DNA of 64,000 bases from Casimicrobiaceae bacterium (GCA_036506975.1 DASXQW010000384.1:125-64124); one strand, 5' to 3'. Shown: positions 19,535 through 51,515, counted from the first letter of the stretch. A program made the numbers and translations. Notes: a model not told the origin generated them from the sequence alone.

Positions 19535-19653
19535 CCCGGGTTGAGCGCCCTTCGACTTCGCTCTGGGCAGGCTTCGCGATACCTGGAGCGGCATCGCAGC
19601 GGAGCGTGCCCCCGGGCATCCCCTGGATCAAGTCCGGGATCAGCCCGGGCTAC
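19531..19653. repeat. MITE-like repeat, copy A (123 bp) with 14-bp terminal inverted repeats
   Basis: GTAGCCCGGGTTGA...TCAGCCCGGGCTAC. The ends are near-identical to copy B. The left TIR contains the ald TAG stop. Confidence 0.8.
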
Positions 19654-19755
19654 ACTGGCGACGCTGGCACTAACTGCGACCGTAGGCTGGCACCAGCCCG
19701 AGCCGCGACGCGCGGCGACAATGCAATCTGCAGCGGATCTTTGCGAGGAATCGAT

Positions 19756-21558: not shown

Positions 21559-21678
21559 CCCGGGCCGAGCGCCCTTCGACTTCGCTCAGGACGGGCTTCG
21601 CGCGATGCCCGGGGCGACATCGCAATGAAACGCAGCCCGGGCATCCCCCGGATCAAATTCGGGGTCAGCCCGGGCTAC
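21555..21678. repeat. MITE-like repeat, copy B (124 bp)
   Basis: GTAGCCCGGGCCGA...TCAGCCCGGGCTAC. The left TIR contains the xsc TAG stop. The centre has diverged from copy A. Confidence 0.8.
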
Positions 21679-21680
21679 AC

Positions 21681-21710
21681 CAGAACACGTGGCATGGCAC
21701 AATTGTTCTG
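21681..21710. promoter_or_regulatory. Inverted repeat CAGAACA-N16-TGTTCTG upstream of the sauS-like operon
   Basis: Read directly from the sequence. It sits between repeat copy B and the sauS-like gene. Candidate operator; the regulator is unknown. Confidence 0.3.
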
Positions 21711-21828
21711 CTCCGCTCCGAAATCAACGAGAGACGTTCGATGACCCGCGCCCGCGCCACCGTTTTCTTGTTTCTCTCGGCGCTCCTGTGCGCAAGTCCG
21801 GCGCTCGCGAAGATCAAGGCTGAATGAC

Positions 21829-23289: not shown

Positions 23290-23305
23290 AGCAGCGCGAG
23301 GCACG

Positions 23306-31026: not shown

Positions 31027-32559
31027 ATGCCCCAGATCCACCTCATCGATGTCACGATGCGCGACGGACACCAGTGCCTGTGGTCGACGCGGATGACCAA
31101 CGCCATGATCGCGCCGGTGCTCGATCTAGCCGACGACGCCGGCTTCCACACGATCGACCTCGTCGGCGGCGCCGTCTTCGACGTGTGCGTGCGCTACCTG
31201 CAGGAGAACCCGTGGGCGCGCATGCGAATGGCCGCGCAGCGGCTGCAGCGCACGCCGATCAACGTCTGGATGCGCGGAGCGAGCCTGTTCACGTTCGAGT
31301 ACTTCCCGCACGACGTGGTCGAGCTGACGATCGCTCATCTCGCCGCGAACGGCGTGCACCATCTGACGACCTACGACGCGCTGAACGACAACCGGAACCT
31401 CGCGGGCTCGGTGCAGGCCGCGCGCTCGGCCGGCATCGGCGTCACCGGCGCCGTCGTGTACACGCTGAGCCCGGTCCATACCGACTCGTATTTCCAGGCC
31501 CGCGCGCGCGAGCTCGTCGCGCTCGGCGTCGATCGGATCTGCCTCAAGGATCCGAGCGGATTGCTCACGCCAGAACGCATACGAACGCTTGCGCCCGCGC
31601 TGCTCGCGGCCGCGCCCGGCATCCCGCTCGAGTTGCATTCGCACTGCCTGTCGGGCCTCGCACCGCACGTGTATCGCGACGCGCTGGACGCCGGCATCAC
31701 GTTCTTCCACACGGCGGTGAGACCTCTTGCCAACGGCGCTTCGCTGCCACCGGCCGAAGACTTCAACGCGACGGCGCTCTCACGCGGGTACCGCACGGGC
31801 ATTCGCGCCGAGCGGCTCGACGAGATGTCGGCGTATTTCGCATGGGTCGCGTGGCGCGAGGGCAAGCCCACGGGAAAACCGGCGACGCTTGATCCGCGGA
31901 TGTACGAGCACCAGGTGCCGGGCGGGATGATCTCGAACCTGCGCACGCAGCTTTGCGCCGCCGGCATCGAGCACCGGCTCGATGAGATCCTCGACGAAGT
32001 CGCGCAAGTACGCAAGGATCTGGGCTATCCGATCATGGTGAGCCCGTTCGCGCAGTTCCTGATCACGCAGGCGACACTCAATGTGGTCCAGGGCGAGCGT
32101 TATTGCATGATCCCCGACGAGCTGCGCAAGTACGCGCTCGGCCATTACGGGCGTGCTGCGGGACCTCTCGCGCCCGAGTTCCTCGAGCGCGCGACGCGAG
32201 GCGAGCCTGTCGTGCAGGAGGCGCCGGCCGAGTTACTCCCGCCCGCGCTGCCACGTCTGCGCGCGGAGCGCGGAGCGCACGCGGGCAACGACGAGATCCT
32301 GCTCGCCGCTTATTACGACGATTCGCTCGTGCGGCCGGTGCTCGCACGTACGCGCGATGCGGTGGCGGGGCTGCGATTCCGCACGACGCCGCTGCGCGAG
32401 CTCGTCGCCTATCTCGCCGGGGCGGCGGACATCGAAAAGCTGCGCGTCGCGATCTCGGGCGTCGATCTTGCGCTCGGCAGCGCCGCTGCGGCGAGCGACG
32501 CGGTGCGACCGGCGATGGCGACGACCGCCCCCGATACTGCGAACGGCAATCTGCGATGA
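31027..32559 (+). CDS. 5S-type carboxyltransferase / oxaloacetate decarboxylase alpha-like (DRE-TIM) protein without a biotinyl domain, copy 1
   Basis: 510 aa. IDVTMRDGHQCLWSTRM, ICLKDPSGLL (Lys-Asp), LELHSHC. No (A/V)MKM biotinylation motif at the C-terminus. Roughly half the residues are identical to the 44760-46235 paralog by eye. Confidence 0.85.
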   Translation: MPQIHLIDVTMRDGHQCLWSTRMTNAMIAPVLDLADDAGFHTIDLVGGAVFDVCVRYLQENPWARMRMAAQRLQRTPINVWMRGASLFTFEYFPHDVVELTIAHLAANGVHHLTTYDALNDNRNLAGSVQAARSAGIGVTGAVVYTLSPVHTDSYFQARARELVALGVDRICLKDPSGLLTPERIRTLAPALLAAAPGIPLELHSHCLSGLAPHVYRDALDAGITFFHTAVRPLANGASLPPAEDFNATALSRGYRTGIRAERLDEMSAYFAWVAWREGKPTGKPATLDPRMYEHQVPGGMISNLRTQLCAAGIEHRLDEILDEVAQVRKDLGYPIMVSPFAQFLITQATLNVVQGERYCMIPDELRKYALGHYGRAAGPLAPEFLERATRGEPVVQEAPAELLPPALPRLRAERGAHAGNDEILLAAYYDDSLVRPVLARTRDAVAGLRFRTTPLRELVAYLAGAADIEKLRVAISGVDLALGSAAAASDAVRPAMATTAPDTANGNLR

Positions 32560-37126: not shown

Positions 37127-37933
37127 TCAGCCCACCGGCTGTCCTTCGACGTCGGCCTGCCTGCTCTCGAACACCTGCTGACGGAGCCAGCGCTTGACCT
37201 CGGCGGCGAGGTGCACGATCGCGGGGTCGGTCGCATCGCGCGGACGCGCGAATTCGACGGACTTGATCTCTTCGACGCGCCCCGGCCGCGGCGCCATGAT
37301 CGCGATGCGGTCGGACAGCTTGATCGCCTCGTCGATGCTATGGGTGACGAAAATCACCGTCTTCGGCTCGCGCTGCCAGATTTTGAGCAGCTCGTCCTGC
37401 ATGTACTCGCGCGTCTGGATGTCGAGCGAGCCAAACGGCTCGTCCATCAGCAGGATCGAAGGGTTGACGGCGAGTGCGCGCGCGATGCTCACGCGCTGGC
37501 GCATGCCGCCGGAGAGCTCTCGCGGGTAGCGCGACTCGAATCCGCGCAGGCCGACGAGGCCGATATAATGCTCGGCGATCCGCCGCTGCTCGGCTTCCGG
37601 CAGGCGTTTGCGCTGCAGCCCGTAGCAGATGTTGTCGCGCACCGTGTACCAGGGAAAGAGCGCGTATTCCTGGAACACGACGGCGCGCTCCCATCCCGGC
37701 TCCGCGATCGGCTCGCCGCCGACGCGAAGCTCGCCGCGCGACGGCTGTTCGAAACCCGCGAGAAGGTTGAGCAACGTCGTCTTGCCGCAGCCGCTTGGAC
37801 CGACGATCGAAAAGAACTCGTTGTTCTCGACGCAGAAGGTGACGTCGAGCAGCGCGAGCAGCGGCTCGCCCTGCATCGAGAAGTGCACCTTGCTGACGTT
37901 GTCGACGCTGACCTGCGACGTGCGCGCGCTCAT
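37127..37933 (-). CDS. NitT/TauT-family ABC transporter ATP-binding protein
   Basis: Walker [10 protein letters not shown], signature [15 protein letters not shown], Walker B LLMDEP. Confidence 0.9.
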
Positions 37934-37943
37934 GGCCGTCGAT

Positions 37944-38828
37944 CTACTTGCCGTGGTACCACGGCATCGCGATGCGCATCGCCTGCCGCATCAGGAAGTC
38001 GAGCACCAGACCGAGAACGCCGATCAGCACCATGCCGAGCAGGATGTAATCGCTGCGGAACAGCGTGCGCGCATTGTTGATCATGAAGCCGAGCCCGCTC
38101 GGCGCCGCGACCAGCTCGCCGGCGACCAGCGCCATCCAGCCGATGCCGAGCCCGATGCGCACGCCGGTGAAGATCTGCGGCAGCGCCGCCGGCAGCACGA
38201 CGGTGCGGAACAGCTCGCCACGGCGCGCGCCGAGGCTCAAGCCCGCGCGAACGAGATACGTGTCGACGTCGCGCGCGCCCGCCATCGAGTTCAGCACGAC
38301 GGGAAAGAACGCTGCGAGGAAGATGATGTAGACGATCTGCATGTCGCCGATGCCGAACCACAGGATCGACAGCGGAATCCAGGCGAGCGGCGGAATCGGC
38401 CGTATGAACTCGAGAACCGGGTCGACAGCGGCGCGGAAGCGCGCCGACCATCCCATCGCTAGACCGAGCGGTACGCCGAGCGCCGTCGCTGCGCCGACGG
38501 CGGCCAGCACGCGCTTGAGGCTGTCGAGGATGTGGGTGAAGAGCACGCCGCGCTGGAACAAGTCGATGGCGGCGGACACGACCGCGGTGGGCGGCGGCAT
38601 CATCACATCGAGCTGCGGATTGATCCGCTGTCCGTAGACGCTGATGACTTCCCAAACGACGACGAATGCCGCAAGCAGCCACCAGTGACCGATGCGTACG
38701 AGCGCACGGCGCCAGCGTGGCTGCGGCGGCGCCACCATCGACGCAGTAATCCGCGCCACCGCGTCGGGCGCCGGCGCCGGACCGGGCTGCGTCGCGGTCC
38801 GCGCGGGCGTCTCGACGACGTGTTGCAT
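37944..38828 (-). CDS. NitT/TauT-family ABC transporter permease
   Basis: 294 aa with a BPD_transp_1 pattern similar to tauC ([19 protein letters not shown]). Confidence 0.85.
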
Positions 38829-38837
38829 GGCGCTCGC

Positions 38838-40214
38838 TTACGGCGTGTACGTCTTGCCCATGAACGTCCACGGCTTCTTCAACTCGCCGGGCTCGGGAAA
38901 CGTAGCCGGTCCGTTCAGCAAAGCGGCCGCGTACGGCTTGTAGGGCAGGTTGCCGACGCCGCCGAAGTCCTTCGGCAGGAACGGCGGGCGTTCGGGCACG
39001 GCCCAGCCGAGCTTGTCGAACGTCGCCTTCATGTAGCTGGTGCGGCGCACGTTCTTCCAGTCGTCGTTCGTCACCTTGTTCTTCGACGCGCCGGTCTCGA
39101 ACGCCCAGTCGCTGATCCGCGACTCCTCCTTCGGCCAGATGCCATTCGCATCGTCGAACGGGTAGTACACAGTCGGCTTCGGCCAGAACAGGTAGCGCTC
39201 AGACATCTTGGTCAACAGCGGCCGCCCGAGCCGCCCATAGGCCGCCTGGCTCAACAGCGCATCGATCGCCTTGTCCGGATTCGCTTTCGCCCACAGTACC
39301 GCTTCGATGAACGCGTCGGTGAGCAGTTGCACGACGTCGGGCGCGTTGTCCTCGATCTCCTGTCGCGCGTAGTAGTAGCCGCTGTAGATGTAATACGGAT
39401 CGAGCGGCTCGAGCAGTCGCGTGACCTTCAGCACTTCGGTCGAGTACGAGACGTGCGGCTCCCAGATCGTGAAGACGTCGATGCCTTTCGGACCCGAAGC
39501 GAGATCGCCGGGTGGCGTACTGCGCAACGTATAGTCCTCGTCCTGCTTGAGCCCCAGATAGTGCGCCGCCGCGATGAAGCCGAAGTGATTCGTCGAGCCG
39601 GTCGTCGTACCGACGACAGCAGGGCGCTTCAGCACCTTCTGCCCCTTGAGATCGGCGAGGCTTTTGAGCGGCGAGTCCAGCGGAACCGTCGCCGCGTGCG
39701 TGAGACCGGGCGAATGCGTGGCGACCGCGCGCGTGGGCACCTTGTTGCTGAGCAGCGCAAGCACGCCGAGCGCGCCGGTGTTCGCGATCTGGATGCGCCC
39801 GGGGATGAACGCCTCGTTCGAGAAGCCGGCGGCAACGAACGTCTGCCATTGAATCTCGATGCCGCGCTTTTCGAGCAGCTTCTGCGTCTGCAGCGTGTTG
39901 CCGATCATCTCCTCGCTCGCCCACACGACGATCCACGCGGCGTTGAGCGGCCACCAACCCTTGCTTTGCAGCCACTGCTTGGACTTCGCCGAGATCTGCT
40001 CGTACGGCAGCGGCCAGCCCCAATCGGTGAACTTCTGCGAGGTGACCGCCGGGGCCGCGGTCTGCGCGCTCGCCGCGCTCGCGGCAGCGAGATCGCCGAG
40101 CAGCAGACCGCCGGCGGCCTTGACGACGGTACTCAGGAACTCACGGCGTGGCAGCGCGGTGGCGGGTTCAGCCGGCACGATCGCGCCGCTGTCGTGCGAT
40201 TTCGAAGCATCCAT
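38838..40214 (-). CDS. NMT1/TauA-like periplasmic binding protein with Tat-type signal
   Basis: The real start is MDASKSHD... (458 aa) after an AAGGAGGA RBS, inside the 836-aa track ORF. Twin-arginine motif PRREFLSTVVKAAGG. Confidence 0.75.
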   Translation of the reverse strand: MDASKSHDSGAIVPAEPATALPRREFLSTVVKAAGGLLLGDLAAASAASAQTAAPAVTSQKFTDWGWPLPYEQISAKSKQWLQSKGWWPLNAAWIVVWASEEMIGNTLQTQKLLEKRGIEIQWQTFVAAGFSNEAFIPGRIQIANTGALGVLALLSNKVPTRAVATHSPGLTHAATVPLDSPLKSLADLKGQKVLKRPAVVGTTTGSTNHFGFIAAAHYLGLKQDEDYTLRSTPPGDLASGPKGIDVFTIWEPHVSYSTEVLKVTRLLEPLDPYYIYSGYYYARQEIEDNAPDVVQLLTDAFIEAVLWAKANPDKAIDALLSQAAYGRLGRPLLTKMSERYLFWPKPTVYYPFDDANGIWPKEESRISDWAFETGASKNKVTNDDWKNVRRTSYMKATFDKLGWAVPERPPFLPKDFGGVGNLPYKPYAAALLNGPATFPEPGELKKPWTFMGKTYTP

Positions 40215-40351
40215 GGCGTCTCCTCCTTGCTCAGTGGGTTTTGATGTAGCTTCGGCTGCTAACGGCTGCCATGACGAAGCCGCGCGCGAACCGGACGAAT
40301 TTTTTGCATGAAAGCTCGAGCAGCGATCCAATATAGCGCAATCGGATACTC

Positions 40352-41101
40352 CTAGCGCGTGAGATAGCCCCCGTCCACCGGAATCGTCGCCCCGTTGACG
40401 TAACCGAGCGCATCCGAGGCGAGCAGCGCGACCGTGGACGCGATATCGTCCGGTACGGCGAAACGGCCAGCCGGGATTGCGGCAAGCACATCGCGACGGC
40501 GCTCGGGCGTGAGCAGCGGGCCCGTCATCCCGGTCTCGGTCACGCCGGGTGCGATCGCATTGACGTTGATGCCATGCGGCGCGAGCTCGCGCGCGAGGCC
40601 CTTCGTGAGGGCGACCACACCCGCCTTCGTCGTGCCGTACAGCACGTTGCCGAACGAGCCGCCACCCTTCGCCGCGGATACCGAAGCAATGTTGACGATC
40701 TTGCCGTAGCGTTGCGCGATCATCGCCGGCAGCACCGCCTTGCAGCAGTAATAAACGCCCGAGAGGTTCACGCGGCAGACATCGTCCCAGTCGGCGATGG
40801 TCGCCTCGGCGACTGGCCCCGTCTTCAGAATCCCTGCATTGTTGACCAGGATATCGATGCGGTTGCGCTCGCGCACGACCCGCCCGACCGCGTCGGCCGC
40901 CGCACTGGCGACGCCGACGTCGAGCGCGATCGGATAACCAAGCCCCCGACACTCGGCAGCGACTTTGCTCGCCGCAGCGACATTGGTGTCGCCCAGGTAC
41001 ACGGTGCAGCCGTGGACGGCGAGTGTGGTCGCAATGGCGGCACCGATGCCGCCGCCGGCACCGGTCACCAGCGCGATCTTCCCGCCGAGTTTCAAATCCA
41101 T
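40352..41101 (-). CDS. Short-chain dehydrogenase/reductase (FabG-like)
   Basis: TGAGGGIG, NNAG, S...YGTTK catalytic motif. Confidence 0.9.
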   Translation of the reverse strand: MDLKLGGKIALVTGAGGGIGAAIATTLAVHGCTVYLGDTNVAAASKVAAECRGLGYPIALDVGVASAAADAVGRVVRERNRIDILVNNAGILKTGPVAEATIADWDDVCRVNLSGVYYCCKAVLPAMIAQRYGKIVNIASVSAAKGGGSFGNVLYGTTKAGVVALTKGLARELAPHGINVNAIAPGVTETGMTGPLLTPERRRDVLAAIPAGRFAVPDDIASTVALLASDALGYVNGATIPVDGGYLTR

Positions 41102-41113
41102 CGAAGCTCCTGT

Positions 41114-41947
41114 TCAGTGGACCGGAGGCAGCCCGAGAATCTGCCGCGCTTCCGCCGGCGTGGCCGGCCGGCGGCCGTAGTGCGGACACGCATCGACGAT
41201 CTTGCGCACCAGCTCGGCGTTGCTCGCCGCGAGCCGGTCGGGCTCGATGCGCAGATTGTCCTCGAGTCCCGTGCGGCAATGCCCGCCCGCCTCCAAGCAC
41301 CACTGGTTGACCTCCCATTGATGGCGGCCGACGCCTGCGGCGACCCACGTCGCACCGGGCAGCACCGCCTCGAGCTCCGAGCGCAGGAAGTCGAAGATCG
41401 TGCGGCGCGCAGGCATCGCATTCGGCACGCCCATGACGAACTGCACGTGCGGCCGCACGTTGACGAGTCCCTTCTTCACGAGATTCGCCGCGTTATAGAG
41501 CATCGCGAGATCGAACACCTCGATCTCCGGCTTGACACCGTGTTCGAGCATCGTTTGAGCGAGCGCCGCGATAAAATCGGGCGGGTTCTCGTAGATGCCG
41601 TTCGGGAAGTTGACCGAGCCGGTTGCCAGCGACGCCATATCGGGCTTCAGGTGCAGCATCGCACCGCGCATCGCGTGCTCGCGGCCGCGGCCGCCGGTGG
41701 AGAACTGCACGATCATGCCGGGGCAGTGCTTGCGCACGCCCTCGCACACGCGCGCGTAGAGTTCCGGATCGGAGCCGGGCGACTCGTCGGGATTGCGCAC
41801 GTGGATGTGCACGAGCGACGCGCCCGCCTCGAATGCCTCGTGCGTCGATGCGATCTGCTCTTTGGGCGTCACCGGCACCGCCGGGTTGTCCTTCTTGCGC
41901 GGCAATGCGCCGGTGATCGCGACCGTGATGATGACGGGCTCCGTCAT
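41114..41947 (-). CDS. BKACE-family beta-keto acid cleavage enzyme (3-keto-5-aminohexanoate cleavage enzyme-like, DUF849)
   Basis: 277 aa. IITVAITGALP, zinc-ligand context LVHIHVRNPDE and RTGLEDN. Confidence 0.9.
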   Translation of the reverse strand: MTEPVIITVAITGALPRKKDNPAVPVTPKEQIASTHEAFEAGASLVHIHVRNPDESPGSDPELYARVCEGVRKHCPGMIVQFSTGGRGREHAMRGAMLHLKPDMASLATGSVNFPNGIYENPPDFIAALAQTMLEHGVKPEIEVFDLAMLYNAANLVKKGLVNVRPHVQFVMGVPNAMPARRTIFDFLRSELEAVLPGATWVAAGVGRHQWEVNQWCLEAGGHCRTGLEDNLRIEPDRLAASNAELVRKIVDACPHYGRRPATPAEARQILGLPPVH

Positions 41948-42807
41948 GCGGCAATCCGTTTGGTTCGTGCCGCCTGCGTCTTCGGAAGCGGCGCCGGGAC
42001 GCTCGCGCCCGCCGGCACCAGCATGGCCGCGATCGCTTGAGCCGCTTCACGCATCGCCGGCAGAAAGGTATAGCTCCTTTTCAGCGTCATCCGCGGCGCC
42101 GGCCCGTGCACGGCAATCGCCGCGCACATCCGTCCGCGCGGATCGCGCACCGGCACGGCGAGGCACACCGATCCGTCGAGGAACTCGCCGGCGTCGGTGG
42201 CCACGCCGGTCGCGCGGACCTTCGCGAGCTCTCGCTCGAGCGCATCGACGCTCACGATCGTGCGCTCGGTGTAGCGCGCCAGCGGCCCCGGGCCGAGCAA
42301 CCGCCGCCGCTGTTCGTGCGACATGTCGGAGAGCAGCAGCTTGCCGCTCGCCGTGCAGTGCAACGGCACCCGCGAGCCGGCCTTCATGTGCAGACGCACG
42401 TTCGCCGATGTCTCGACGCGATCGACATAGACGACCTCTCGGCCGTCGAGCATCGTGAAGTTGCACGTCTCGCCGATCGCTTCGACCAGCCGCGCGAGGA
42501 TCGCGTGCCGCTCACGTCGCCGCGGCCAGCGCATCTGCACGGCGAGCGACAGCGTGCACAGGCGGGCGCCGATCGCGTAGCGCTTGTCGTGCACTTCACG
42601 CTCGACGAGCCCGCCACACATCAAGAGCCGCAGGATCCGGTACACGGTGGGCTTCGGCAGCCCGGTCGCGCGCGTCAGCTCCTCGAGCGTGGGCGGCTCG
42701 TCGGCCGCCGCAATCCGTTCGAGCAGCGCAAAGGCACGTAGCGCCGACGACGGGGCCCCGTCAGGACCGGGGGACACGGCACGTAATTTCATTGAGCGAA
42801 ATGCCAC
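41944..42807 (-). CDS. IclR-family transcriptional regulator
   Basis: wHTH LEELTRATGLPKPTVYRILRLL plus an IclR effector domain. ATGA overlap with the BKACE gene. The start is GTG 42807 or ATG 42792. Confidence 0.9.
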   Translation of the reverse strand: MAFRSMKLRAVSPGPDGAPSSALRAFALLERIAAADEPPTLEELTRATGLPKPTVYRILRLLMCGGLVEREVHDKRYAIGARLCTLSLAVQMRWPRRRERHAILARLVEAIGETCNFTMLDGREVVYVDRVETSANVRLHMKAGSRVPLHCTASGKLLLSDMSHEQRRRLLGPGPLARYTERTIVSVDALERELAKVRATGVATDAGEFLDGSVCLAVPVRDPRGRMCAAIAVHGPAPRMTLKRSYTFLPAMREAAQAIAAMLVPAGASVPAPLPKTQAARTKRIAA

Positions 42808-42916
42808 GTTTCATTATTGCAATGTTTTTCCTGCCGTGCAATGATGGCCGCGGTCGGCGCGATGCCGGCGGCGGGACGTTGGCGCGCGCCCGCCACGCCT
42901 CTTCCCGGAGTTTCGC
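42808..42916. promoter_or_regulatory. Divergent control region (iclR operon / biotin-carboxylase operon) with repeated TGCAATG and TTTCATT motifs
   Basis: GTTTCATTATTGCAATG-N14-GTGCAATGATGG contains the 8-bp palindrome ATTGCAAT. A second TTTCATT copy lies just inside the 5' end of iclR. Confidence 0.4.
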
Positions 42917-43399
42917 TTGGCCCACGACAATCTCACGTACGACGACCTGCTGCGAATCGTCGAGCTGATCAAGACTTCGGAGCAGTTTTCCGAGTTCCGG
43001 CTGAAGATCGGCGAGATCGAGGTCGAGCTGCGCCGCCGTGGTGCGGCGGGCGCGCCGGCGCCACTAGCGTCGTCGAGCCCGCCGGCGCCGGTTGCGCAGC
43101 CCGCCGAGCCGGTGCCGGCGCGCGAGGCGCCGAGCTGGCCCGAAGGCTCGATCGTCATCCGCTCCCCGATGGTCGGAACGTTCTATCGCGCCCCCGAGCC
43201 GGGCGCGCGGCCGTTCATCGATGTCGGCCAAGCCGTGGAACCCGACACGACGGTGTGCATCATCGAGGTCATGAAGCTGATGAACTCGATTCCCGCCAGC
43301 GCATGGGGGACGGTCATGCAAATCCTCGTCCAGGACGCGGCCGCGGTCGAAGCCGGGCAGCCGCTGATCGTGCTGCAGCCGGAAGCCGAGCCGGAATGA
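42917..43399 (+). CDS. Biotin carboxyl carrier protein (AccB-like)
   Basis: 160 aa with a TTG start. Ala/Pro-rich linker. Biotinyl-Lys motif IIEVMKLMNSIPA. Confidence 0.85.
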   Translation: MAHDNLTYDDLLRIVELIKTSEQFSEFRLKIGEIEVELRRRGAAGAPAPLASSSPPAPVAQPAEPVPAREAPSWPEGSIVIRSPMVGTFYRAPEPGARPFIDVGQAVEPDTTVCIIEVMKLMNSIPASAWGTVMQILVQDAAAVEAGQPLIVLQPEAEPE

Positions 43400-44763
43400 A
43401 GACCACCACACGTCCTTTTCGCCGCATCCTCGTCGCGAACCGCGGCGAAATCGCTCTTCGGATCATTCGCGCCTGTCACGAGGTTGACATCGAGGCGATC
43501 CAGGCTTACTCCGAGGCTGATCGCGATTCGCTTCCGGTACGGCTCGCCGACGGCTCGATCTGCGTCGGACCGCCGCCGCCGAGCCAGAGCTACCTCAGGA
43601 TCGATGCGTTGATCGCCGCGGCGCGCATGGCGAAGGCCGACGCGATCCACCCCGGCTACGGTTTCCTCTCCGAGAACGCGGCGTTTGCCCGGGCGTGCGA
43701 CGACGCCGGCATTGTGTTCATCGGTCCGCCCGAGCGCGCGATTGCGCTGATGGGCGACAAGGTGGCTGCGCGGCGAATGGCGGCGGAGGCAGGGGTGCCC
43801 GTCACGCCGGGATCGCCGGGAACGCTTCCGCACGCCGCGGCCGCGCGCGAGGTCGCAGCCACACTCGGTTACCCGGTGCTCCTCAAGGCGGCCGCCGGTG
43901 GGGGCGGGCGCGGCATGCGGGTGGTGCACGACGAAGCGCAGCTCGCGGCGCGCTTCACCGACGCCGCACGCGAGGCGCAAGCGGCGTTCGGAGACGGCGG
44001 CCTTTACGTCGAGAAGTTTCTCGAGCGCGTCCGCCACGTGGAGATCCAGGTGCTTTCCGACGGCGAGACCGTGTTGCACCTCGGCGAGCGCGACTGCTCG
44101 ATCCAGCGCCGCAATCAGAAGCTCGTCGAGGAAAGCCCGTCACCCGCGCTCGACGACGCCATGCGCGCGCGGATGGGCGAGGCGGCGGTGCGTGTCTGCC
44201 GGCATGTCGGATATCGCAGCGCCGGCACGATCGAGTTCGTCGTCGACGCTGCGAGCGGGGCCTTCTACTTCATGGAAATGAACACGCGTGTGCAGGTCGA
44301 ACATCCGGTCACCGAACTCGTCACCGGCATCGATATCGTCAAGGCGCAGATTCGCATCGCGCAGGGCGAGCGGCTGCAGATCGCGCAGGGCGACGTGCGG
44401 CTCACCGGCCACGCGCTCGAATGCCGGATCAACGCGGAGGATGCCGCGCGCGACTTCGCGCCCTCGCCCGGCGAGGTGCGCGCGCTGCGCCTGCCCGGGG
44501 GACCCGGCATCCGCATCGACTCGCATCTGTTCGCCGGGTATCGTGTTCCGCCCTACTACGATTCGCTGCTCGCGAAGGTGATCGCCTGGGGCCGCGACCG
44601 CGACGAAGCAATCGCGCGCATGCGCCGCGCCATCGGCGAGATGCAAGTCGAAGGCGTGCACACGACGCTGGCGTTCCACGCGCGGCTGCTCGCCGACGAG
44701 CGCTTCCGCCGCGGCGACGTGCATACGCGTTTTGTCGAAGACGAGCTTGCGAGGACAGCATGA
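43396..44763 (+). CDS. Biotin carboxylase (AccC-like)
   Basis: The real start is MKTTTRPFRRILVANRGEIALRIIRAC (455 aa), with an ATGA overlap with the BCCP gene. Also KAAAGGGGRGMRVV and MEMNTRVQVEHPVTE. Confidence 0.95.
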   Translation: MKTTTRPFRRILVANRGEIALRIIRACHEVDIEAIQAYSEADRDSLPVRLADGSICVGPPPPSQSYLRIDALIAAARMAKADAIHPGYGFLSENAAFARACDDAGIVFIGPPERAIALMGDKVAARRMAAEAGVPVTPGSPGTLPHAAAAREVAATLGYPVLLKAAAGGGGRGMRVVHDEAQLAARFTDAAREAQAAFGDGGLYVEKFLERVRHVEIQVLSDGETVLHLGERDCSIQRRNQKLVEESPSPALDDAMRARMGEAAVRVCRHVGYRSAGTIEFVVDAASGAFYFMEMNTRVQVEHPVTELVTGIDIVKAQIRIAQGERLQIAQGDVRLTGHALECRINAEDAARDFAPSPGEVRALRLPGGPGIRIDSHLFAGYRVPPYYDSLLAKVIAWGRDRDEAIARMRRAIGEMQVEGVHTTLAFHARLLADERFRRGDVHTRFVEDELARTA

Positions 44764-46235
44764 AGGCACGCAACGACGCCTCCGGAAGCGCTCCGCGCTT
44801 CGATTTCATCGACGTCACGCTGCGCGATGCGCACCAGTGTCTGTGGTCGACGCGGATGACCACCGCGATGATGACGCCGATCCTCGGCGCGATCGACCGC
44901 GCCGGTTATTCGTTCATCAACATCCTCGGCGGCGCCGTGTTCGACGTGTGCGTGCGCTACCTGCAGGAGAACCCGTGGGAACGCGTCGGCCTGCTCTGCG
45001 AGCGGCTCGCCACACCGTGCGACGGCCTCACCCGCGGGCAGAGCCTGTACACATTCGAGCTCTTTCCCGACGACATCGTCGCGCTCAACTCGCACGCGCT
45101 CGCCCGTCGCGGCATCGAGGTACTGACTGTCTACGACGCGCTGAACGACAACCGCAACATCGCCTCGTCGGTGCATTCGGGGCACGAGGCGGGGATGAAG
45201 GTCAACGCGATGATGACCTACACGCTGTCGCCGGTGCACACCGACGCCTACTATGTCGATTGCACGCGCGAGTTGGTCGCGCTCGACGTCGACTTCATCT
45301 CGATCAAGGATCCGACCGGCCTGCTCACTCCCGAGCGCGGCCGCACGCTGTTCCCGGCCGTCGTGCACGCCGCGGGCGGCATTCCGCTGCAGCTGCATTC
45401 GCATTGCCAGTCGGGGCTCTCGCCCGAGGTCTACGAGATCGCGATGCAAAGCGGGTTCCGGCTCGGCTATACGGCGAGCGAGCCGCTCGCCAATGGCGCC
45501 TCGTTGCCGGCGACCGAGGACGTGCTCGCGCGTGCGCGCCGGCTCGGTTTCGCGACGTCGATGAACGACGCGGCGCTCGCCGAGATCGCGGGCTACTTCA
45601 ACTGGGTGTGCGAGCGCGAGGCCAAGCCGCGCGGCGAGATCGCCGCCTACGACCCCGCGCTCTACGAGCACCAGATCCCGGGCGGAATGATCTCGAATCT
45701 GCGTTATCAGCTGGAGACGATGAAGCTCGAACACCGGCTGCCCGAGATCCTCGAGGAGGTTGCGCGCGTGCGGCAGGACCTCGGTTACCCGATCGTCGTG
45801 AGCCCGTTCGCGCAGTACATCGTCACGCAGGCGACGCTGAACGTCGTGCAGGGCGAGCGCTACAAAACGATCCCCGACGAGATCCGCAAGTACGCGCGCG
45901 GCTACTATGGCCGGCTCGCCGCGAAACCTTCGGACGAGTTCCTCGAGCGCGCGAACATCCGCGACTCGGAGTACGTGACCGAGGCGCCTGCAGCGCACCT
46001 CGAGCCGTGGGTCCCGCGCCTTCGTGCCGAGCTCGGATCGGCGGCGGGCGATGAAGACGTCCTGCTCGCGGCGTTCTATGCTCGCAAGCTGATCGAGCCG
46101 CTGCGCAATCCGGCGCCCGAATGCCGCTTTCGCACCACGCCGCTCACCGAGCTCGTCGGCTTCCTCGCGAGACGCACCGACATCGGCTACGCGCGCATCC
46201 GTTTCGCGGGCGCCGATATGATGGTTTCGGCGTAG
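44760..46235 (+). CDS. 5S-type carboxyltransferase (DRE-TIM) without a biotinyl domain, copy 2
   Basis: Start MKARNDASG (491 aa), with an ATGA overlap with the biotin carboxylase gene. IDVTLRDAHQCLWSTRM, ISIKDPTGLL, LQLHSHC. Shares an identical run of about 40 nt (TTCGACGTGTGCGTGCGCTACCTGCAGGAGAACCCGTGGG) with copy 1. Confidence 0.85.
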   Translation: MKARNDASGSAPRFDFIDVTLRDAHQCLWSTRMTTAMMTPILGAIDRAGYSFINILGGAVFDVCVRYLQENPWERVGLLCERLATPCDGLTRGQSLYTFELFPDDIVALNSHALARRGIEVLTVYDALNDNRNIASSVHSGHEAGMKVNAMMTYTLSPVHTDAYYVDCTRELVALDVDFISIKDPTGLLTPERGRTLFPAVVHAAGGIPLQLHSHCQSGLSPEVYEIAMQSGFRLGYTASEPLANGASLPATEDVLARARRLGFATSMNDAALAEIAGYFNWVCEREAKPRGEIAAYDPALYEHQIPGGMISNLRYQLETMKLEHRLPEILEEVARVRQDLGYPIVVSPFAQYIVTQATLNVVQGERYKTIPDEIRKYARGYYGRLAAKPSDEFLERANIRDSEYVTEAPAAHLEPWVPRLRAELGSAAGDEDVLLAAFYARKLIEPLRNPAPECRFRTTPLTELVGFLARRTDIGYARIRFAGADMMVSA

Positions 46236-46245
46236 CGGTTCGCGC

Positions 46246-46968
46246 TTGGACCTCGTCACGCTGACGGCAGCGGCCACGATCGCCGGCATCGCGGGCGTCG
46301 TGCGCGGGATCACGGGCTTCGGCGGCGCGCTGGTGATGTCGCCGCCGCTCGCGCTGCTGCTCGGCCCGCGGCTCGCGGTTCCCGTCGTGCTGCTGCTCGA
46401 GTCGGTCATCGCCGCGCCGATGCTCGTGCACACGCGCCACCTCGTGCACTGGCGTGTGATCGGCGCAATCCTCGCAGCCGCCTGCGCGACGGTGCCGCTC
46501 GGCACGCTCATCCTGGTCGCCACCGATCCGCAGATCATCCGGCGCGCGATCGCGGCGACGGTGATCGTGTTCGCGTTTGTGCTGCTGCGCGGCTGGCGCT
46601 ACACGGGCCGGCCGCGGCTCGTCACGTCGGTCGGGCTCGGCGCGGCGAGCGGGGCCATGCTCGGCGCGACGAGCGTCGGCGGCCCGCCGGTGATCCTCTA
46701 TCTGCTTTCCGGTCCCGACCCCATCGAGACCACGCGCGCGAATCTCACGCTGTACGTCACCGTCACCTCGCTCGTCGGCATCGTCATGCTGTGGCGCCAT
46801 GGCGTGTTCGACGCGCGCGCCGCGTGGACCTCATTGTGGCTCGCGCCGGCCTACTACGCCGGGCTCGGCGCCGGCGTGCGCCTGTTTCCGCGCTTCAGCG
46901 ACACGCGCTTCCGGCAGCTGACGCTGTCGCTGCTGATCGGCGTGTCGATCGTGATTCTGCTCGCGTGA
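46246..46968 (+). CDS. tauE: TauE/SafE-family anion (sulfite) exporter-like permease
   Basis: 240 aa with a TTG start and 7-8 TM segments. Internal duplication with G-rich motifs (GITGFGGALV, GATSVGGPPV) typical of DUF81/TauE. Confidence 0.75.
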   Translation: MDLVTLTAAATIAGIAGVVRGITGFGGALVMSPPLALLLGPRLAVPVVLLLESVIAAPMLVHTRHLVHWRVIGAILAAACATVPLGTLILVATDPQIIRRAIAATVIVFAFVLLRGWRYTGRPRLVTSVGLGAASGAMLGATSVGGPPVILYLLSGPDPIETTRANLTLYVTVTSLVGIVMLWRHGVFDARAAWTSLWLAPAYYAGLGAGVRLFPRFSDTRFRQLTLSLLIGVSIVILLA

Positions 46969-47018: not shown

Positions 47019-47453
47019 ATGAAGGTACTGGTCACCGGCGTCATCGGTTCCGACACGCATATCGTGGGCAACCGCATTCTTTCGATGGCGCTGGAACAGG
47101 CGGGATACAAGGTCATCGCCCTGGGCGCGCTGACTCCCGCCGACGAATTCATCAAGGCGGCGGTGGAAACCAACGCCGACGCGATCATGGTGTCCTCGCT
47201 CTACGGTCAGGGCGAGCTCGACTGTCGTGGCTTCCGTGACATGTGCGTCGAAGCCGGGCTCGACCACATCCTGCTATACATAGGTGGCAATCTCGTCGTG
47301 GGCAAGCAGTCGTGGCCCGAGGTGGAAAGGCGATTCCTCGACATGGGCTTCGATCGGGCTGCGCCGCCGGGGACGAGGATCGAGACAGTGCTCGCGTGGC
47401 TCGCGCAGGATTTCGCCTCGCGCGAGCGAGCGATGCAGGGTGGCGGGGATTGA
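47019..47453 (+). CDS. glmS: Glutamate mutase (methylaspartate mutase) sigma subunit, B12-binding
   Basis: 144 aa. [18 protein letters not shown] contains the DxHxxG cobalamin His-ligand motif. Length and sequence match MutS/GlmS of clostridial glutamate mutase. Confidence 0.9.
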
Positions 47454-47457
47454 CGCG

Positions 47458-48876
47458 ATGGAGAGCGCTGCGCTTCTGATCGACTTCGGCAGCACGTACA
47501 CCAAGCTGCGCGCAGTCGATCTCGATCGGCGTCGCATCCTCGGAGCCGGTCAGGGTCCCTCGACGGTCACCTCGGATATCATGGTCGGCATGAAAGCCGC
47601 GCTGCTGGATCTGGAACGGCGCCTGGGTGGTTTGCCCCGCTTCCGGTACCGGCTCGCATCGAGCAGCGCCGCGGGCGGACTGCGGATGGTGACTGTAGGT
47701 CTGGTCCGCGAGCTCACTGCGGAGGCGGCGCGCCGCGCCGCGCTGGGTGCTGGCGCGAAACTGGTCGGCACGTTCGCGCAGCGCCTCACTCAAGGCGACG
47801 TCGGGGCCATCGTGACGCGGGCGCCGGATATCCTTTTGCTGGCGGGCGGCACTGACGGCGGCAACAGCGACGTCATCCTGCACAACGCAGCCGCGCTCGG
47901 CCGAAGCGCCCTCTCGTGCCCGATCGTGCTCGCCGGCAACCGCAGCGCGACCGACGCCGCGCTGGCGCTGCTCGCGGGCAAGGACGTCATCGTGACCGAG
48001 AACGTCATGCCGGAGTTCAACGTCCTCAACATCGAGCCCGCGCGCGCGGCGATTCGCCAGGTGTTCATCGACCGCATCGTGCACGCCAAGGGCATCGACC
48101 GGGCGCAGGCCGAGTTCGATCAGATGCTGATGCCTACGCCCGCGGCCGTGTTGGAAGGAGCGCGGCTGCTCGCCGACGGCTGCGAAGGCGTGTCAGGCCT
48201 CGGGCCGCTGCTGGTGATCGATCCGGGCGGCGCAACCACCGACGTGCACTCGATAACAAGCGGCGAACCGTCGCTGCCCGGGGTCATCGTCCAGGGGCTG
48301 CCCGAGCCACGCGTCAAGCGCAGCGTCGAGGGCGACCTCGGCATGCGCCACAACGCGGCCAATATCGTGGAGGTTGCCGGGCTCGAAGCGATTGCAGCCG
48401 ATGCCGGGCTCGCGCCGGCGCGGGTCGCTGTCTTGGTCGCGGAGATCGCGCAGGATGTGGAACGCCTGCCACGGGCGACCGAGGAGATCGCGCTCGATCA
48501 GGCGCTGGCGCGGGCTGCGGTCGCTCAGGCGGTGATGCGGCACTGCGGCACGGTGGAAACGATTTACACGGTCGTGGGACCGGTCAGCGTGCAGCACGGC
48601 AAGGACTTGTCGATGGTCGGCACGGTCATCGGCACGGGCGGCGCTCTCGTACACAGCAGTGACCCGAAAGCGGTGCTGGCGATGGCGCTGGCCGAACCCT
48701 CGGCGCCGCAGTCGCTGCGACCCAGACGACCGAAGCTGTTGCTCGACCGCGGCTATCTGCTCTATGCCTGCGGCCTGCTCGGCGCCGTCGATCCCCCTGC
48801 CGCGCTCGGCCTCGCCTTGGCGAACCTCGAGCCGCTCGATGCGGAGCAAGCCCTTGAACGCACCCGCATCGCCTGA
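47458..48876 (+). CDS. glmL: Glutamate mutase accessory/reactivating protein (MutL/GlmL)
   Basis: The real start is MESAALLIDFGSTYTKLRAVDL (472 aa). Also SSSAAGGLRMVTVGLVRELTAEAARRAALGAGAK, LLAGGTDGGN, IDPGGATTDVHS. Strong resemblance to the remembered MutL sequence. Confidence 0.85.
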   Translation: MESAALLIDFGSTYTKLRAVDLDRRRILGAGQGPSTVTSDIMVGMKAALLDLERRLGGLPRFRYRLASSSAAGGLRMVTVGLVRELTAEAARRAALGAGAKLVGTFAQRLTQGDVGAIVTRAPDILLLAGGTDGGNSDVILHNAAALGRSALSCPIVLAGNRSATDAALALLAGKDVIVTENVMPEFNVLNIEPARAAIRQVFIDRIVHAKGIDRAQAEFDQMLMPTPAAVLEGARLLADGCEGVSGLGPLLVIDPGGATTDVHSITSGEPSLPGVIVQGLPEPRVKRSVEGDLGMRHNAANIVEVAGLEAIAADAGLAPARVAVLVAEIAQDVERLPRATEEIALDQALARAAVAQAVMRHCGTVETIYTVVGPVSVQHGKDLSMVGTVIGTGGALVHSSDPKAVLAMALAEPSAPQSLRPRRPKLLLDRGYLLYACGLLGAVDPPAALGLALANLEPLDAEQALERTRIA

Positions 48877-50350
48877 AGCTACCCGTACGCCGCTCTCCGA
48901 GGATCGCATCCCGGACGACGTGTTCGCCGTGATGCGCCGGGAGAATCTGGCGCGCTGGCCTTCAGGCGCCGCGGTCGATTTCGATGCCGCCGTCGACCTG
49001 CAGCGCGAGCTTCCGCGGCACAAGCAGCTCGGCTGGACGATGCGCCGTGCAGTCGCCGAGCGGCGCTGCCTGACGCAGCCGCGCGGCGGCTTCGCGACCT
49101 TCGAAATGCAGCGGGCGCTGATGGTGACGCTCGATCGCGAAGGGCTCGCCGACATCGTGCCGACCACCACCGACAGCTACACCCGCAACGAGCAGTGGCA
49201 GCTCGCGCAGAAGGGAGTCGAGGAGTCGGAGCGCGCCGGCCGTTCGATGCTCAACGGCTATCCGATCGTCAATTACGGGGTCGACTGCGCGCGCCAGCTC
49301 ATCGCCGCGATCGACAAGCCCGCGATCATGCTGACCGGCACGACGATGCCGAAGCTCACCAGCGAGATTGCCTTTGCCGGCGGCTACTCCGGGTATCTCG
49401 GGTCCGGCATCGCCTATACGACCTCGTATATCAAGGAGCTCTCGATCGAGGACGGGATCCGCAATTACCAGTATCTGGATCGCCTGGCCGCGCTCTACGG
49501 CGAGCACGGCGTCGAGCTGCACCGACGCCAGCCGGGTTTTCTCACCGGGACCAATATCCCTCCCTGCATCGCGATTGCCACGTGCGTCCTCGACTGCCTG
49601 CTCGCGGCGGCGCAAGGCGTCAAGAATTACGGCCTAGAGATGGGCGAGACGCTGCACCTCATCCAGGACGCCGCGGCCGTTGCGGCGTGCGGCGAGCTCG
49701 CCCAGGAGTATCTCGCCACAAAGGGCTACCACGACGTCTTCACCGCGGTGACGCTGCTGCATTGGATGAGCGCGTGGCCGCAGGACGACGCCCAGGCGGC
49801 GGCGCTGATCAGCTACGGCGGCACGCTCGCGGCGATCAGCGGCGCGGCGAGCGTGACCACCAAGAGCACTCACGAGGCGTTCGGCATCCCGACGCCGCAA
49901 GCCAATGCCGAAGGGCTGCGGATGACGCGCATGGCGATCTATCTCGCGCGCAACATCCGGCTCGACGGGCTGCCCGCGTACGAGCAGGAAAAAGCGCTGA
50001 TCGGGCGCGAGGTGCGCGCGATCGTCGACAAGGTCCTCGAGATGGGCGACGGCGATGTCGCCGTCGGCGCCGTGCGCGCGTTCGAGGCGGGGGTGCTCGA
50101 TGTTCCCTGGTCGCCGAATCGCCACTGTCGGAGCCGAGTCCTGCCGGCGCGCGATGTCGACGGTTACCTGCGCATCCTCGATCCGGGGCTGATGCCGTTT
50201 CCACGCGACATCATGGAGCTGCACGCCGAGCGACTGCGTAAACGCGCCGAGCGTGACAAGATCGCCTTCGGTCCGGACCTCGCGGTGAGCAGCGTGTACG
50301 AGATTGGGGAGCCCATCGGCAAGCTCCTGCCCGACAACTGGGCGCGCTAG
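48839..50350 (+). CDS. glmE: Glutamate mutase (methylaspartate mutase) epsilon subunit
   Basis: TQPRGGFATFE, TTDSYTRNEQW, ERAGRSMLNGYPIVNYGV and TKSTHEAFGIPT parallel the clostridial GlmE. The ATG 48839 start (38-nt overlap with glmL) is the only in-frame ATG upstream of the conserved N-terminus. Confidence 0.9.
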   Translation: MRSKPLNAPASPEATRTPLSEDRIPDDVFAVMRRENLARWPSGAAVDFDAAVDLQRELPRHKQLGWTMRRAVAERRCLTQPRGGFATFEMQRALMVTLDREGLADIVPTTTDSYTRNEQWQLAQKGVEESERAGRSMLNGYPIVNYGVDCARQLIAAIDKPAIMLTGTTMPKLTSEIAFAGGYSGYLGSGIAYTTSYIKELSIEDGIRNYQYLDRLAALYGEHGVELHRRQPGFLTGTNIPPCIAIATCVLDCLLAAAQGVKNYGLEMGETLHLIQDAAAVAACGELAQEYLATKGYHDVFTAVTLLHWMSAWPQDDAQAAALISYGGTLAAISGAASVTTKSTHEAFGIPTPQANAEGLRMTRMAIYLARNIRLDGLPAYEQEKALIGREVRAIVDKVLEMGDGDVAVGAVRAFEAGVLDVPWSPNRHCRSRVLPARDVDGYLRILDPGLMPFPRDIMELHAERLRKRAERDKIAFGPDLAVSSVYEIGEPIGKLLPDNWAR

Positions 50351-50393
50351 GAGCCGACCGCGCCCATCGTTCGGGACGCGACATCATCCGCGC

Positions 50394-51515
50394 ATGCAGC
50401 ACCTCGACAAGGTCACGGTATACCGCCTGCGCGTGCCGCTGGTAAGGCCGTATCGTCTGGCGTTCGGGGCGGTCGAACATTACGACACGATCGTCGTGGA
50501 GGCCATGCGCCCTGATGGGCAGCGGGGGTTCGGCGAGGCGACCGTGCTTACCGGCTACACCGATGAAACCATCGAGGATAGCTGGAGCGTCGCCCGTGAG
50601 TTCGCAGCCGAGCTGGCGGGTGTCGGCTGCGACAGCGCGGCCATCAAGGTAGCGCAGCTCGGGCTGAAGTTCCCGTTCACCGCGACGGCCTTCGGCACGG
50701 CGCTCGAGATGCTGGCGGGTAGCGAGACGCTCAAGGTCGGCGCCGGAACACGCGTTCCGCTGGTCGGGCTGCTGCACACCGAAGACGAGGGCGCGATGGC
50801 GGCCGAGTTCGAGCGGCTGCTCTGCGAGGGCTACCGGACGATCAAGGTGAAGGTCGGCTTCGACGTCGGCGCCGATCTGCGCCGCGTGCACCGCGTGCAG
50901 CGCGTCGCGGCAGGGCGCGCCCGGATTCGCATCGACGCCAACCAGGGGTACACGGCAGACGAAGGTCGTGCGTTCGCGACCGCGCTCGATCCGGCCGGCA
51001 TCGAGCTCTTCGAGCAGCCTTGCGCAGCGGGAGACTGGGACGCGCACCTGGCCGTGGCTCGCGCCTCGCCGGTGCCGATGATGCTCGACGAATCGATCTA
51101 CGGGCTGGCCGACATCGAGAAGGCCGCGGCGCTCCGCGCGGCGAGCTACATCAAGGTCAAGCTCATGAAGCTGGTGACGCTCGAGCGCCTGACCCAGGCG
51201 ATCGAGCGCATCGCCGCGCTGGGGATGCGGGCGGTGCTGGGCAACGGGGTCGCGTGCGATCTCGGCTGCTGGATGGAAGCGTGCGTCGCCGCGCGCCACA
51301 TCGACAACGCGGGCGAAATGAATGGCTTCTTGAAGGCGCGCTCCGGGCTCCTGACCGACGAGCTCGCAGTCGCCGGGGGCGCGATCGCGCTCAGCTCCGA
51401 CTTCGCGCCGCAGCTCGATCCGCAAGCGCTTGAGCGCTATCGCGTCGATTCCGTCAGTGGGGCGGCGCCCCCTGCACGCACCGCCGCAGCATGGACCGGG
51501 CCGGCGAGCGAATGA
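50394..51515 (+). CDS. Enolase-superfamily enzyme, MLE subgroup (dipeptide-epimerase/racemase-like); not methylaspartate ammonia-lyase
   Basis: 373 aa. KxK motif TIKVKVG. Metal-ligand contexts RIDANQGY, ELFEQP, MLDESI. Second catalytic Lys in YIKVKLMK. Confidence 0.85.
   Translation: MQHLDKVTVYRLRVPLVRPYRLAFGAVEHYDTIVVEAMRPDGQRGFGEATVLTGYTDETIEDSWSVAREFAAELAGVGCDSAAIKVAQLGLKFPFTATAFGTALEMLAGSETLKVGAGTRVPLVGLLHTEDEGAMAAEFERLLCEGYRTIKVKVGFDVGADLRRVHRVQRVAAGRARIRIDANQGYTADEGRAFATALDPAGIELFEQPCAAGDWDAHLAVARASPVPMMLDESIYGLADIEKAAALRAASYIKVKLMKLVTLERLTQAIERIAALGMRAVLGNGVACDLGCWMEACVAARHIDNAGEMNGFLKARSGLLTDELAVAGGAIALSSDFAPQLDPQALERYRVDSVSGAAPPARTAAAWTGPASE

Follow-up and report, generated by a model that had tools for sequence, protein, structure and literature searches.

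A beta-keto acid cleavage enzyme is coupled to a biotin-dependent carboxylase in a conserved two-operon module of soil bacteria

A stretch of 64,000 nucleotides (GCA_036506975.1 DASXQW010000384.1:125-64124; referred to here as the window) from the metagenome-assembled genome (MAG) of a soil Casimicrobiaceae bacterium carries six co-oriented genes on the minus strand between positions 37,127 and 42,807. They encode an IclR-family regulator, a Zn-dependent beta-keto acid:acetyl-CoA cleavage enzyme (BKACE, DUF849), a short-chain dehydrogenase (SDR) and the binding protein, permease and ATPase of an ATP-binding cassette (ABC) importer. All six were located by open reading frame (ORF) listing and translation. 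Their order, with a 137-nt spacer between the SDR and binding-protein genes, had been given in a preliminary description of this DNA and was borne out by ORFs, Pfam and NCBIfam. The translational coupling of iclR to the BKACE gene noted there is also present, as the BKACE ATG overlaps the iclR TGA by 4 nt (ATGA); the SDR gene starts 12 nt past the BKACE gene. Diverging from iclR on the plus strand are genes for a biotin carboxyl carrier protein (BCCP), a biotin carboxylase (BC), a carboxyltransferase (CT, here CT1) and a TauE/SafE permease. The gap of 109 bp described between iclR and the BCCP gene is correct when counted from the GTG at 42807; the ATG at 42792 is the more likely start of iclR.

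The neighbourhood was compared across 37 loci found via the binding protein and further loci found via the BKACE, and all ORFs of 50 loci were clustered. One of these loci, L001, is 99% identical to the window. Wherever the flanking sequence suffices, a BKACE at least 77% identical to that of the window adjoins IclR and BCCP-(BC)-CT genes, and this linkage to the carboxylase is strict; BKACE homologues of about 60% identity lie in other, unrelated contexts. The families recurring most often are the binding protein (30 loci), IclR (27, where it adjoins the BKACE), CT (27), BKACE (26) and permease (25), followed by SDR orthologues (21), ATPase (20), BCCP (18), TauE (14) and an MFS transporter of the metabolite:H+ symporter family (13). 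TauE belongs to the module in at least 14 loci. Apart from the SDR and the carboxylase, the neighbourhoods share just one further recurrent enzyme family, a SauS-like dehydrogenase present in four loci, and no pca or cat gene was present among the recurring families of these loci. The smallest form, L058, consists of IclR-BKACE divergent from BCCP-BC-CT-SDR, with an EamA-family gene beside the BKACE gene. In L059, from another class, a BKACE of 52% identity is accompanied by a DctM gene and BCCP-BC-CT, the CT being 48% identical. The ABC genes lie downstream of CT inside the carboxylase operon in L023-L030; in L056 a fused TRAP permease replaces the ABC importer, and MFS and EamA genes occur in some clusters. 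Transporters thus vary between loci, and the ABC importer is a movable accessory.

BCCP-BC-CT and TauE form one arm of a conserved module of two operons (Table 1), and the second arm is the iclR-BKACE-SDR-ABC operon. The operon had been described as a catabolic unit under IclR control. The BKACE, the SDR, the importer of the nitrate/sulfonate/taurine class and the IclR control stand, but the six genes are only half of the module. A place for the glutamate-mutase-like genes in the unit was rejected: they lie outside the conserved module, next to TauE solely in the window and in the near-identical L001. These genes (window 47019-51515; GlmS/GlmL/GlmE-like) score above the NCBIfam methylaspartate mutase cut-offs and are followed by an enolase-superfamily gene that is not a methylaspartate ammonia-lyase; in other species no synteny links them to the module.

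Table 1. Features of the two divergent operons and of the region between them (window coordinates).
Feature	Position	Strand	Evidence or content
IclR-family regulator	41944-42807 (ORF from GTG at 42807)	-	HTH_IclR and IclR_C; IclR_C E = 2e-41
BKACE (DUF849), Zn-dependent beta-keto acid:acetyl-CoA cleavage enzyme, carboxylase-linked clade	41114-41947	-	PF05853 E = 9e-98
FabG-like short-chain dehydrogenase (SDR)	40352-41101	-	adh_short E = 6e-55; adh_short_C2
Spacer, 137 nt, SDR to binding-protein gene	40215-40351	-	GATTGCGCTATATTGG at 40343-40328; AAGGAGG ribosome-binding site
Tat-exported substrate-binding protein, SsuA/TauA fold, 458 aa	38838-40214	-	RREFL twin-arginine signal; weak SsuA_fam/NMT1 matches; AlphaFold/Foldseek
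ABC permease, TauC/SsuC/NtrB-like	37944-38828	-	BPD_transp_1
ABC ATPase, nitrate/sulfonate/taurine class	37127-37933	-	ABC_tran
Shared control region	42786-42845	.	palindrome, TTGCAA, 17-nt spacer, TGCAATGAT
BCCP, stand-alone	42917-43399	+	Biotin_lipoyl; TIGR00531 130.8 bits (cut-off 115)
Biotin carboxylase (BC)	43399-44763 (start approximate)	+	NF006367 683.5 bits
CT (CT1), BCCP-less, HMGL/PYC_OADA type, ketone-carboxylase-like motifs	44760-46235 (start approximate)	+	profile and motif analysis
TauE/SafE (TSUP) anion permease	46246-46968	+	PF01925 95 bits; synteny

The region between the two arms contains a 17-bp palindrome, ATTTCATTGAGCGAAAT, at 42786-42802, which covers the ATG of iclR and has the consensus ATTTCGCTGAGCGAAAT. 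It is followed by TTGCAA (42817-42822), a 17-nt spacer and TGCAATGAT (42837-42845), which on both strands can be read as -35 and extended -10 boxes and so as putative face-to-face divergent promoters. A consensus promoter scan called no promoter there; by hand count the boxes match at 8 of 12 positions, just below the scan threshold. Palindrome and boxes are kept in all 27 divergent regions extracted, including those of loci with only 63-70% IclR identity. This conservation in distant loci supports the co-regulation of both arms that had been proposed from the shared gap. The regulator itself is a general IclR-family member and scores under the NCBIfam cut-offs of BhcR, PcaR/PcaU and KdgR; on TIGR02431, the PcaR/PcaU/PobR subfamily model, it reaches 150.7 bits against a cut-off of 284.75 and falls outside that subfamily.

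The carboxyltransferase of the divergent arm keeps the RDAHQ and RGQ motifs, the carbamylated-Lys position and the HxH metal ligands. Compared to pyruvate carboxylase (PC), KDM is changed to KDP (KDPTG), GYRHY to TFELF and TP(S/T)SQ to SPFAQ, and there is no BCCP domain. The CTs of PC and oxaloacetate decarboxylase (OAD) are characterised by KDM(A), GYRHY, TP(S/T)SQ and a BCCP that is usually fused, none of which is found here. For comparison, three genomes with a BCCP-less CT beside a PPDK_N-domain gene were used (L060, L061, L062); such loci were recognised as Hpe/Acv-type by the order PPDK_N gene, BCCP, CT, which is the layout of hpeHICBA and acv and the order seen in L060. The motifs QCLW, KDPxGLL, HxHC, (S/T)PFAQ and (F/W)E are common to CT1, to a second CT of the window (CT2) and to these kinase-linked CTs, whereas PC, OAD and the 5S subunit have QSLx, KDMAxxL, HxH(A/S), TP(T/S)SQ and GYRHY. 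In a quick tree, CT1, CT2 and the Hpe/Acv-type CTs group apart from the PC, OAD and 5S clade. The reaction shown for HpeCBA is carboxylation of 4-phosphoacetophenone at its acetyl group, with a beta-keto acid as product (PMC9618137). Judged by its CT motifs, the carboxylase of the module is probably functionally like the acetyl-group carboxylases, yet it is outside the Hpe/Acv clade.

Like the module, the HpeCBA, AcvCDE and XccBCA systems have separate BCCP and BC and a BCCP-less CT of about 490 aa; as proposed for the module, their product is a beta-keto acid that is then cleaved. Their substrates, however, are phosphorylated hydroxyphenylethanones, and they come with a CreHI-type kinase and a NagD-type phosphatase, whereas the module has neither and no aromatic context. 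Cleavage of the beta-keto acid is carried out there by a CoA ligase with a hydrolase or thiolase; in the module of the window it would fall to the BKACE. CT2 (window 31027-32559) is 58% identical to CT1 and has the same ketone-carboxylase-like motifs. Its operon contains TRAP, thiolase-like and ADP-forming CoA ligase genes, lacks its own BC and BCCP, and is seen again close to the module in L005 and L016-L019.

The BKACE scores 327.3 bits on PF05853 (gathering score 24.8) over profile positions 1-274. It carries HIHVRN, PEIEVFD and RTGLEDN. The HIHVR and GLEDN contexts, pointed out in the preliminary description, are invariant in the 38 aligned relatives covering those segments, and an alignment showed that the His-x-His pair, the two strand glutamates, FD and the GLED core do not vary across the clade, 3no5 and 3chv. 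The roles of the catalytic Glu and of Zn in BKACEs have been described (PMC11961710). The enzyme passes the curated cut-off of NF053568 (3-oxoadipate:acetyl-CoA acetyltransferase) with 466.7 bits against 350. The solved structures nearest to it are 3no5, 3chv and 3fa5, with 3no5 closest (351 bits, full length). Assignment was made by NCBIfam, PDB relatives and motifs only; secondary sources conflict as to whether beta-ketoadipate BKACEs belong to group G3 or G4 of the ASMC scheme of Bastard et al. 2014. BKACEs of this kind are placed in the beta-ketoadipate or negatively charged substrate groups and are sited inside pca and cat operons (PMC8963497, PMC6449761, PMC4922564). The window enzyme falls in the anionic-substrate group, and an anionic substrate is to be expected for it.

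Within this group the enzyme belongs to a tight clade of 77-95% identity that spans several families. Relatives of at least 83% identity take all of the top 120 matches listed, in a search dominated by metagenome-derived sequences. With the Zn and catalytic motifs unchanged, five strand-end positions separate the clade from 3no5, 3chv and two homologues of about 60% identity (L048, L050). The clade has ITGA where the 3no5-type set has ITGS, STGGRGR(E/D) for STGGRSGAG, NFPxG/N for NFP(T/S)R, MGxPN..RR for MGxKN..DR and HQWE for HQLT. It is without the Arg of NFP(T/S)R and the Lys of MG(V/I)KN, and it has gained STGGRGR(E/D) and PxRR. Compared to the Cupriavidus necator H16 type of NF053568 (3no5, 3chv, 3fa5), the enzyme has the fold and family in common, as well as the EIEVFD glutamate and the Zn ligands (HxH, E of GLEDN), but the active-site loop residues of 3no5 and 3chv are not matched, and whereas published members lie in pca/cat operons, the window clade always adjoins a biotin carboxylase. 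The 3-oxoadipate label of the model should not be transferred to this clade as it stands.

The preliminary description had left room for a charged substrate, either a sulfonate or a quaternary amine. A sulfonate is still plausible. A carnitine-like quaternary amine is unlikely, because the BKACE lies above the NF053568 cut-off, and this candidate was rejected on account of the anionic-group assignment and the several Arg/Lys of the loops. The position which we take to be that of the amine-binding Glu of Kce, counted from the Zn histidines and not from an alignment with Kce, holds Ala or Leu.

Two more distant BKACEs were encountered. The only other one of this genome (L054; G000:C132:16848-17735) is 32% identical, has an insertion of about 16 aa after its NF motif and comes after genes for an SDR and an ABC ATPase, thus forming a separate SDR-BKACE unit. 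In L009 (778-1944) a 389-aa ORF, whose family occurs in four loci, scores 202 bits on PF05853 and adjoins an SDR of 59% identity a few kb off the module.

The SDR of the window reaches no NCBIfam equivalog cut-off, and PDB and NCBIfam searches for its specificity gave generic FabG-like matches only. We propose that it acts as a dehydrogenase converting a secondary alcohol to a ketone. A second kind of SDR is encoded after the ABC ATPase gene in L023 (10830-11666), L029, L031, L032 and L037. That of L023 passes the NCBIfam 3-hydroxybutyrate dehydrogenase model NF009093 (316 bits, cut-off 258), while the window SDR scores 162 bits on the PHB_DH model.

The binding protein has weak sequence matches (SsuA_fam 69.6 bits, cut-off 163.5; NMT1 17.9 bits). 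With 20 relatives as input, an AlphaFold model was obtained (pLDDT 74) and compared by Foldseek, which placed 2x26, 6ssy and 3uif at the top with probability 1.00; SsuA (2x26) and TauA (6ssy) are nearest, with E = 2e-15 and a TM score of 0.72-0.78 on the target. The permease scores 194 bits on the TauC model (cut-off 342) and the ATPase is below cut-offs with 250 bits for SaoA and 245 bits for TauB (cut-off 357). The importer therefore shares the binding-protein fold and the ABC class of TauABC and SsuABC, with all three components well below equivalog cut-offs. Unlike TauA and SsuA, the binding protein is longer by a conserved C-terminal extension of about 130 aa, is Tat-exported and forms a family of its own with two paralogous branches (40% identity), the members of which were found here nearly always near module genes. 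A transfer of the sulfonate-binding residues of TauA was dropped, since the alignment was too weak for their numbering to be carried over with confidence. A CmpA/NrtA-type bicarbonate importer feeding the carboxylase had been considered because of the length of the protein and is unlikely: SsuA and TauA rank first, and the root-mean-square deviation to NrtA and CmpA is 9-10 A. In L012 (6240-11113), an orthologous binding protein (83%), permease and ATPase stand alone, divergent from a class-III aminotransferase gene, with no BKACE or carboxylase within 8 kb.

In the spacer ahead of the binding-protein gene, a scan detected no terminator-like site; no Rfam match was found, and a riboswitch there is not supported. 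The element GATTGCGCTATATTGG is found again in L012, ahead of its stand-alone ABC genes, and in L002 and L006. Because of this recurrence it is a possible internal promoter of the ABC genes, acting alongside read-through.

The constant partner of the BKACE clade is BCCP-BC-CT, and the SDR is the only other recurring enzyme of the module. A beta-keto acid is therefore likelier to arise by carboxylation of a ketone than by oxidation of a beta-hydroxy acid. The route that appears moderately probable from the genes would begin with entry of a small anionic secondary alcohol or ketone through the ABC system, or elsewhere through the products of the MFS, TRAP or EamA genes in or beside the cluster. 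From an alcohol the SDR would produce a methyl ketone, which BCCP, BC and CT would carboxylate at the carbon adjoining its carbonyl, at the expense of ATP and bicarbonate, to give a beta-keto acid with a distal negative group. With acetyl-CoA, the BKACE would convert this acid to acetoacetate and an acyl-CoA. By binding the 17-bp palindrome that overlies the iclR start codon, IclR would control both divergent promoters. The genome has a PcaI/ScoA-type CoA transferase, on C51, which could activate the acetoacetate.

While the gene identities, the BKACE-carboxylase linkage, the conserved control region and the CT motifs in common with acetyl-group carboxylases are directly observed, the order of the steps and the substrate are what we infer from them, and several points weigh against the route. 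The position of the SDR step is a guess. Identity between the CT and those of the Hpe/Acv type is only about 35%, which brings it no nearer to them than to PC-B, and an Hpe/Acv-type kinase or phosphatase partner was absent from all of the approximately 50 module loci. As RDAHQ, RGQ and the metal ligands are kept, an alpha-keto acid substrate of the CT is possible. Given the stand-alone ABC genes of L012, the cargo of the importer may not be the pathway substrate.

The main alternative is the one favoured in the preliminary description, in which an imported beta-hydroxy acid is oxidised by the SDR straight to the beta-keto acid and cleaved by the BKACE. The carboxylase would then serve anaplerosis or product handling. 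Such SDR and BKACE logic is established for deoxyribonate (bioRxiv 10.1101/205583). The deoxyribonate and carnitine clusters likewise combine a dehydrogenase, a BKACE and a transporter in a regulated cluster and yield acetoacetate and an acyl-CoA. The SDR gene lying only 12 nt past the BKACE gene, and the PC motifs that the CT retains, would fit this scheme. In the deoxyribonate and carnitine pathways, however, the beta-keto acid is formed by oxidation alone, with no carboxylase, and their BKACEs are of other active-site groups, for polar or cationic substrates. Direct oxidation leaves unexplained the constant adjacency of BKACE and carboxylase, which extends even to another class, and the conserved shared operator. 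The CT motifs at the substrate and biotin pocket are unlike those of PC and like those of acetyl-group carboxylases, and in L058 the SDR gene sits in the carboxylase operon and not in the BKACE operon. In view of the conserved carboxylase partner, direct oxidation is rather unlikely, and less probable than ketone carboxylation.

A still less probable explanation, which we regard as doubtful at best, is that the enzyme is the known 3-oxoadipate:acetyl-CoA acetyltransferase, serving as the exit of the protocatechuate pathway or converting imported beta-ketoadipate to succinyl-CoA and acetoacetate. The NF053568 score speaks for it, contig C370 of the genome encodes pcaHG and pcaD in addition to the CoA transferase on C51, and IclR resembles PcaR/PcaU (150 bits). 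Moreover, BKACE genes replace pcaIJF in Methylobacterium and lie in the Cupriavidus cat operon (PMC8963497, PMC6449761). Against this, a pca or cat gene is present in none of the module loci, and PcaD was not found in three of the 11 module genomes, all three of which are 98-100% complete. The five strand-end positions differ from those of 3no5, 3chv, L048 and L050, and the carboxylase and TauE would have no role. The BKACE does fall in a named subgroup, as the preliminary description had considered, but 3-oxoadipate from aromatic catabolism leaves the operon unexplained.

A loop from 3-hydroxybutyrate through acetoacetate to 3-oxoglutarate, from which the BKACE would give malonyl-CoA and regenerated acetoacetate, is very improbable: the variant-locus SDR of the 3-hydroxybutyrate dehydrogenase type and the published groupings that include BKACEs acting on negatively charged substrates (PMC4922564) agree with it, but it nets only the conversion of acetyl-CoA to malonyl-CoA already done by ordinary acetyl-CoA carboxylase, gives no reason for several importers or an IclR-controlled catabolic layout, and meets a window SDR with just 162 bits on the corresponding model.

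For the route by ketone carboxylation, two substrates were weighed. About half of the weight was given to a C3 ketosulfonate, with sulfoacetone converted to 4-sulfoacetoacetate and sulfoacetyl-CoA, which would be passed on to SauS, Xsc and TauE. About a third was given to levulinate/4-hydroxyvalerate, where 4-hydroxyvalerate would give levulinate, 3-oxoadipate and succinyl-CoA. On the sulfonate side are the TauT-class transporter, the SsuA/TauA-fold binding protein and the TauE of the module. With its Xsc, SauS, AptA-type aminotransferase, Ald and Pta genes, the window is a sulfonate island; genuine Xsc (940 bits) and SauS (734 bits) are encoded at 19366-24826, at a distance of 16-21 kb from the operon. 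In four other genomes (L011/L057, L031, L032, L037), no more than 8 kb separates SauS from the module. SauS is present in all 11 module genomes, namely that of the window, G022, G072, G098, G104, G166, G191, G235, G290, G291 and the distant G372, compared to 33 of 301 genomes in the order sample and neither of the two genomes having only a BKACE of about 60% identity. In G098 (C12:15342-16795), SauS occupies two adjacent frames, which cover model positions 2-331 and 311-463, beside an intact Xsc; the split is due either to a frameshift or to an assembly error.

A sulfonate substrate has its own difficulties. The co-occurrence with SauS is inflated by relatedness, SauS being common in the same families; the core module contains no desulfonating enzyme; and a literature search turned up no natural sulfoacetone or 2-hydroxypropanesulfonate. 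On the levulinate side are the match between the BKACE and the model for 3-oxoadipate enzymes, the MFS metabolite:H+ symporter and the 3-hydroxybutyrate-dehydrogenase-type SDR of the variant loci; TauE and SauS are left unexplained by it. A literature search on levulinate carboxylase and sulfoacetone metabolism retrieved nothing relevant. As a specific and tentative possibility, the module could form a new desulfonation route, in which 2-hydroxypropanesulfonate is converted to sulfoacetone and 4-sulfoacetoacetate, and then to acetoacetate and sulfoacetyl-CoA, with SauS and Xsc releasing sulfite for export by TauE.

A full-text literature search for a BKACE and an acetyl-group biotin carboxylase together yielded only a synthetic CO2-fixation design. 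The BKACE-carboxylase module is thus uncharacterised in the literature searched, each enzyme type being already known separately. One consequence concerns annotation: the NCBIfam name 3-oxoadipate:acetyl-CoA acetyltransferase is applied to a clade that differs from the published family in context and from its nearest solved relatives in pocket loops. Should the substrate prove to be a sulfonate, compounds could enter the SauS/Xsc desulfonation funnel at a new point, with a biotin carboxylase and a BKACE both acting on sulfonates; to our knowledge, neither has been described as doing so. Many soil MAGs of the Burkholderiales keep the coupling, as does at least one other class. Since it is widespread in soil MAGs and close BKACE relatives are abundant, the module is likely a common soil route for a small organic anion.

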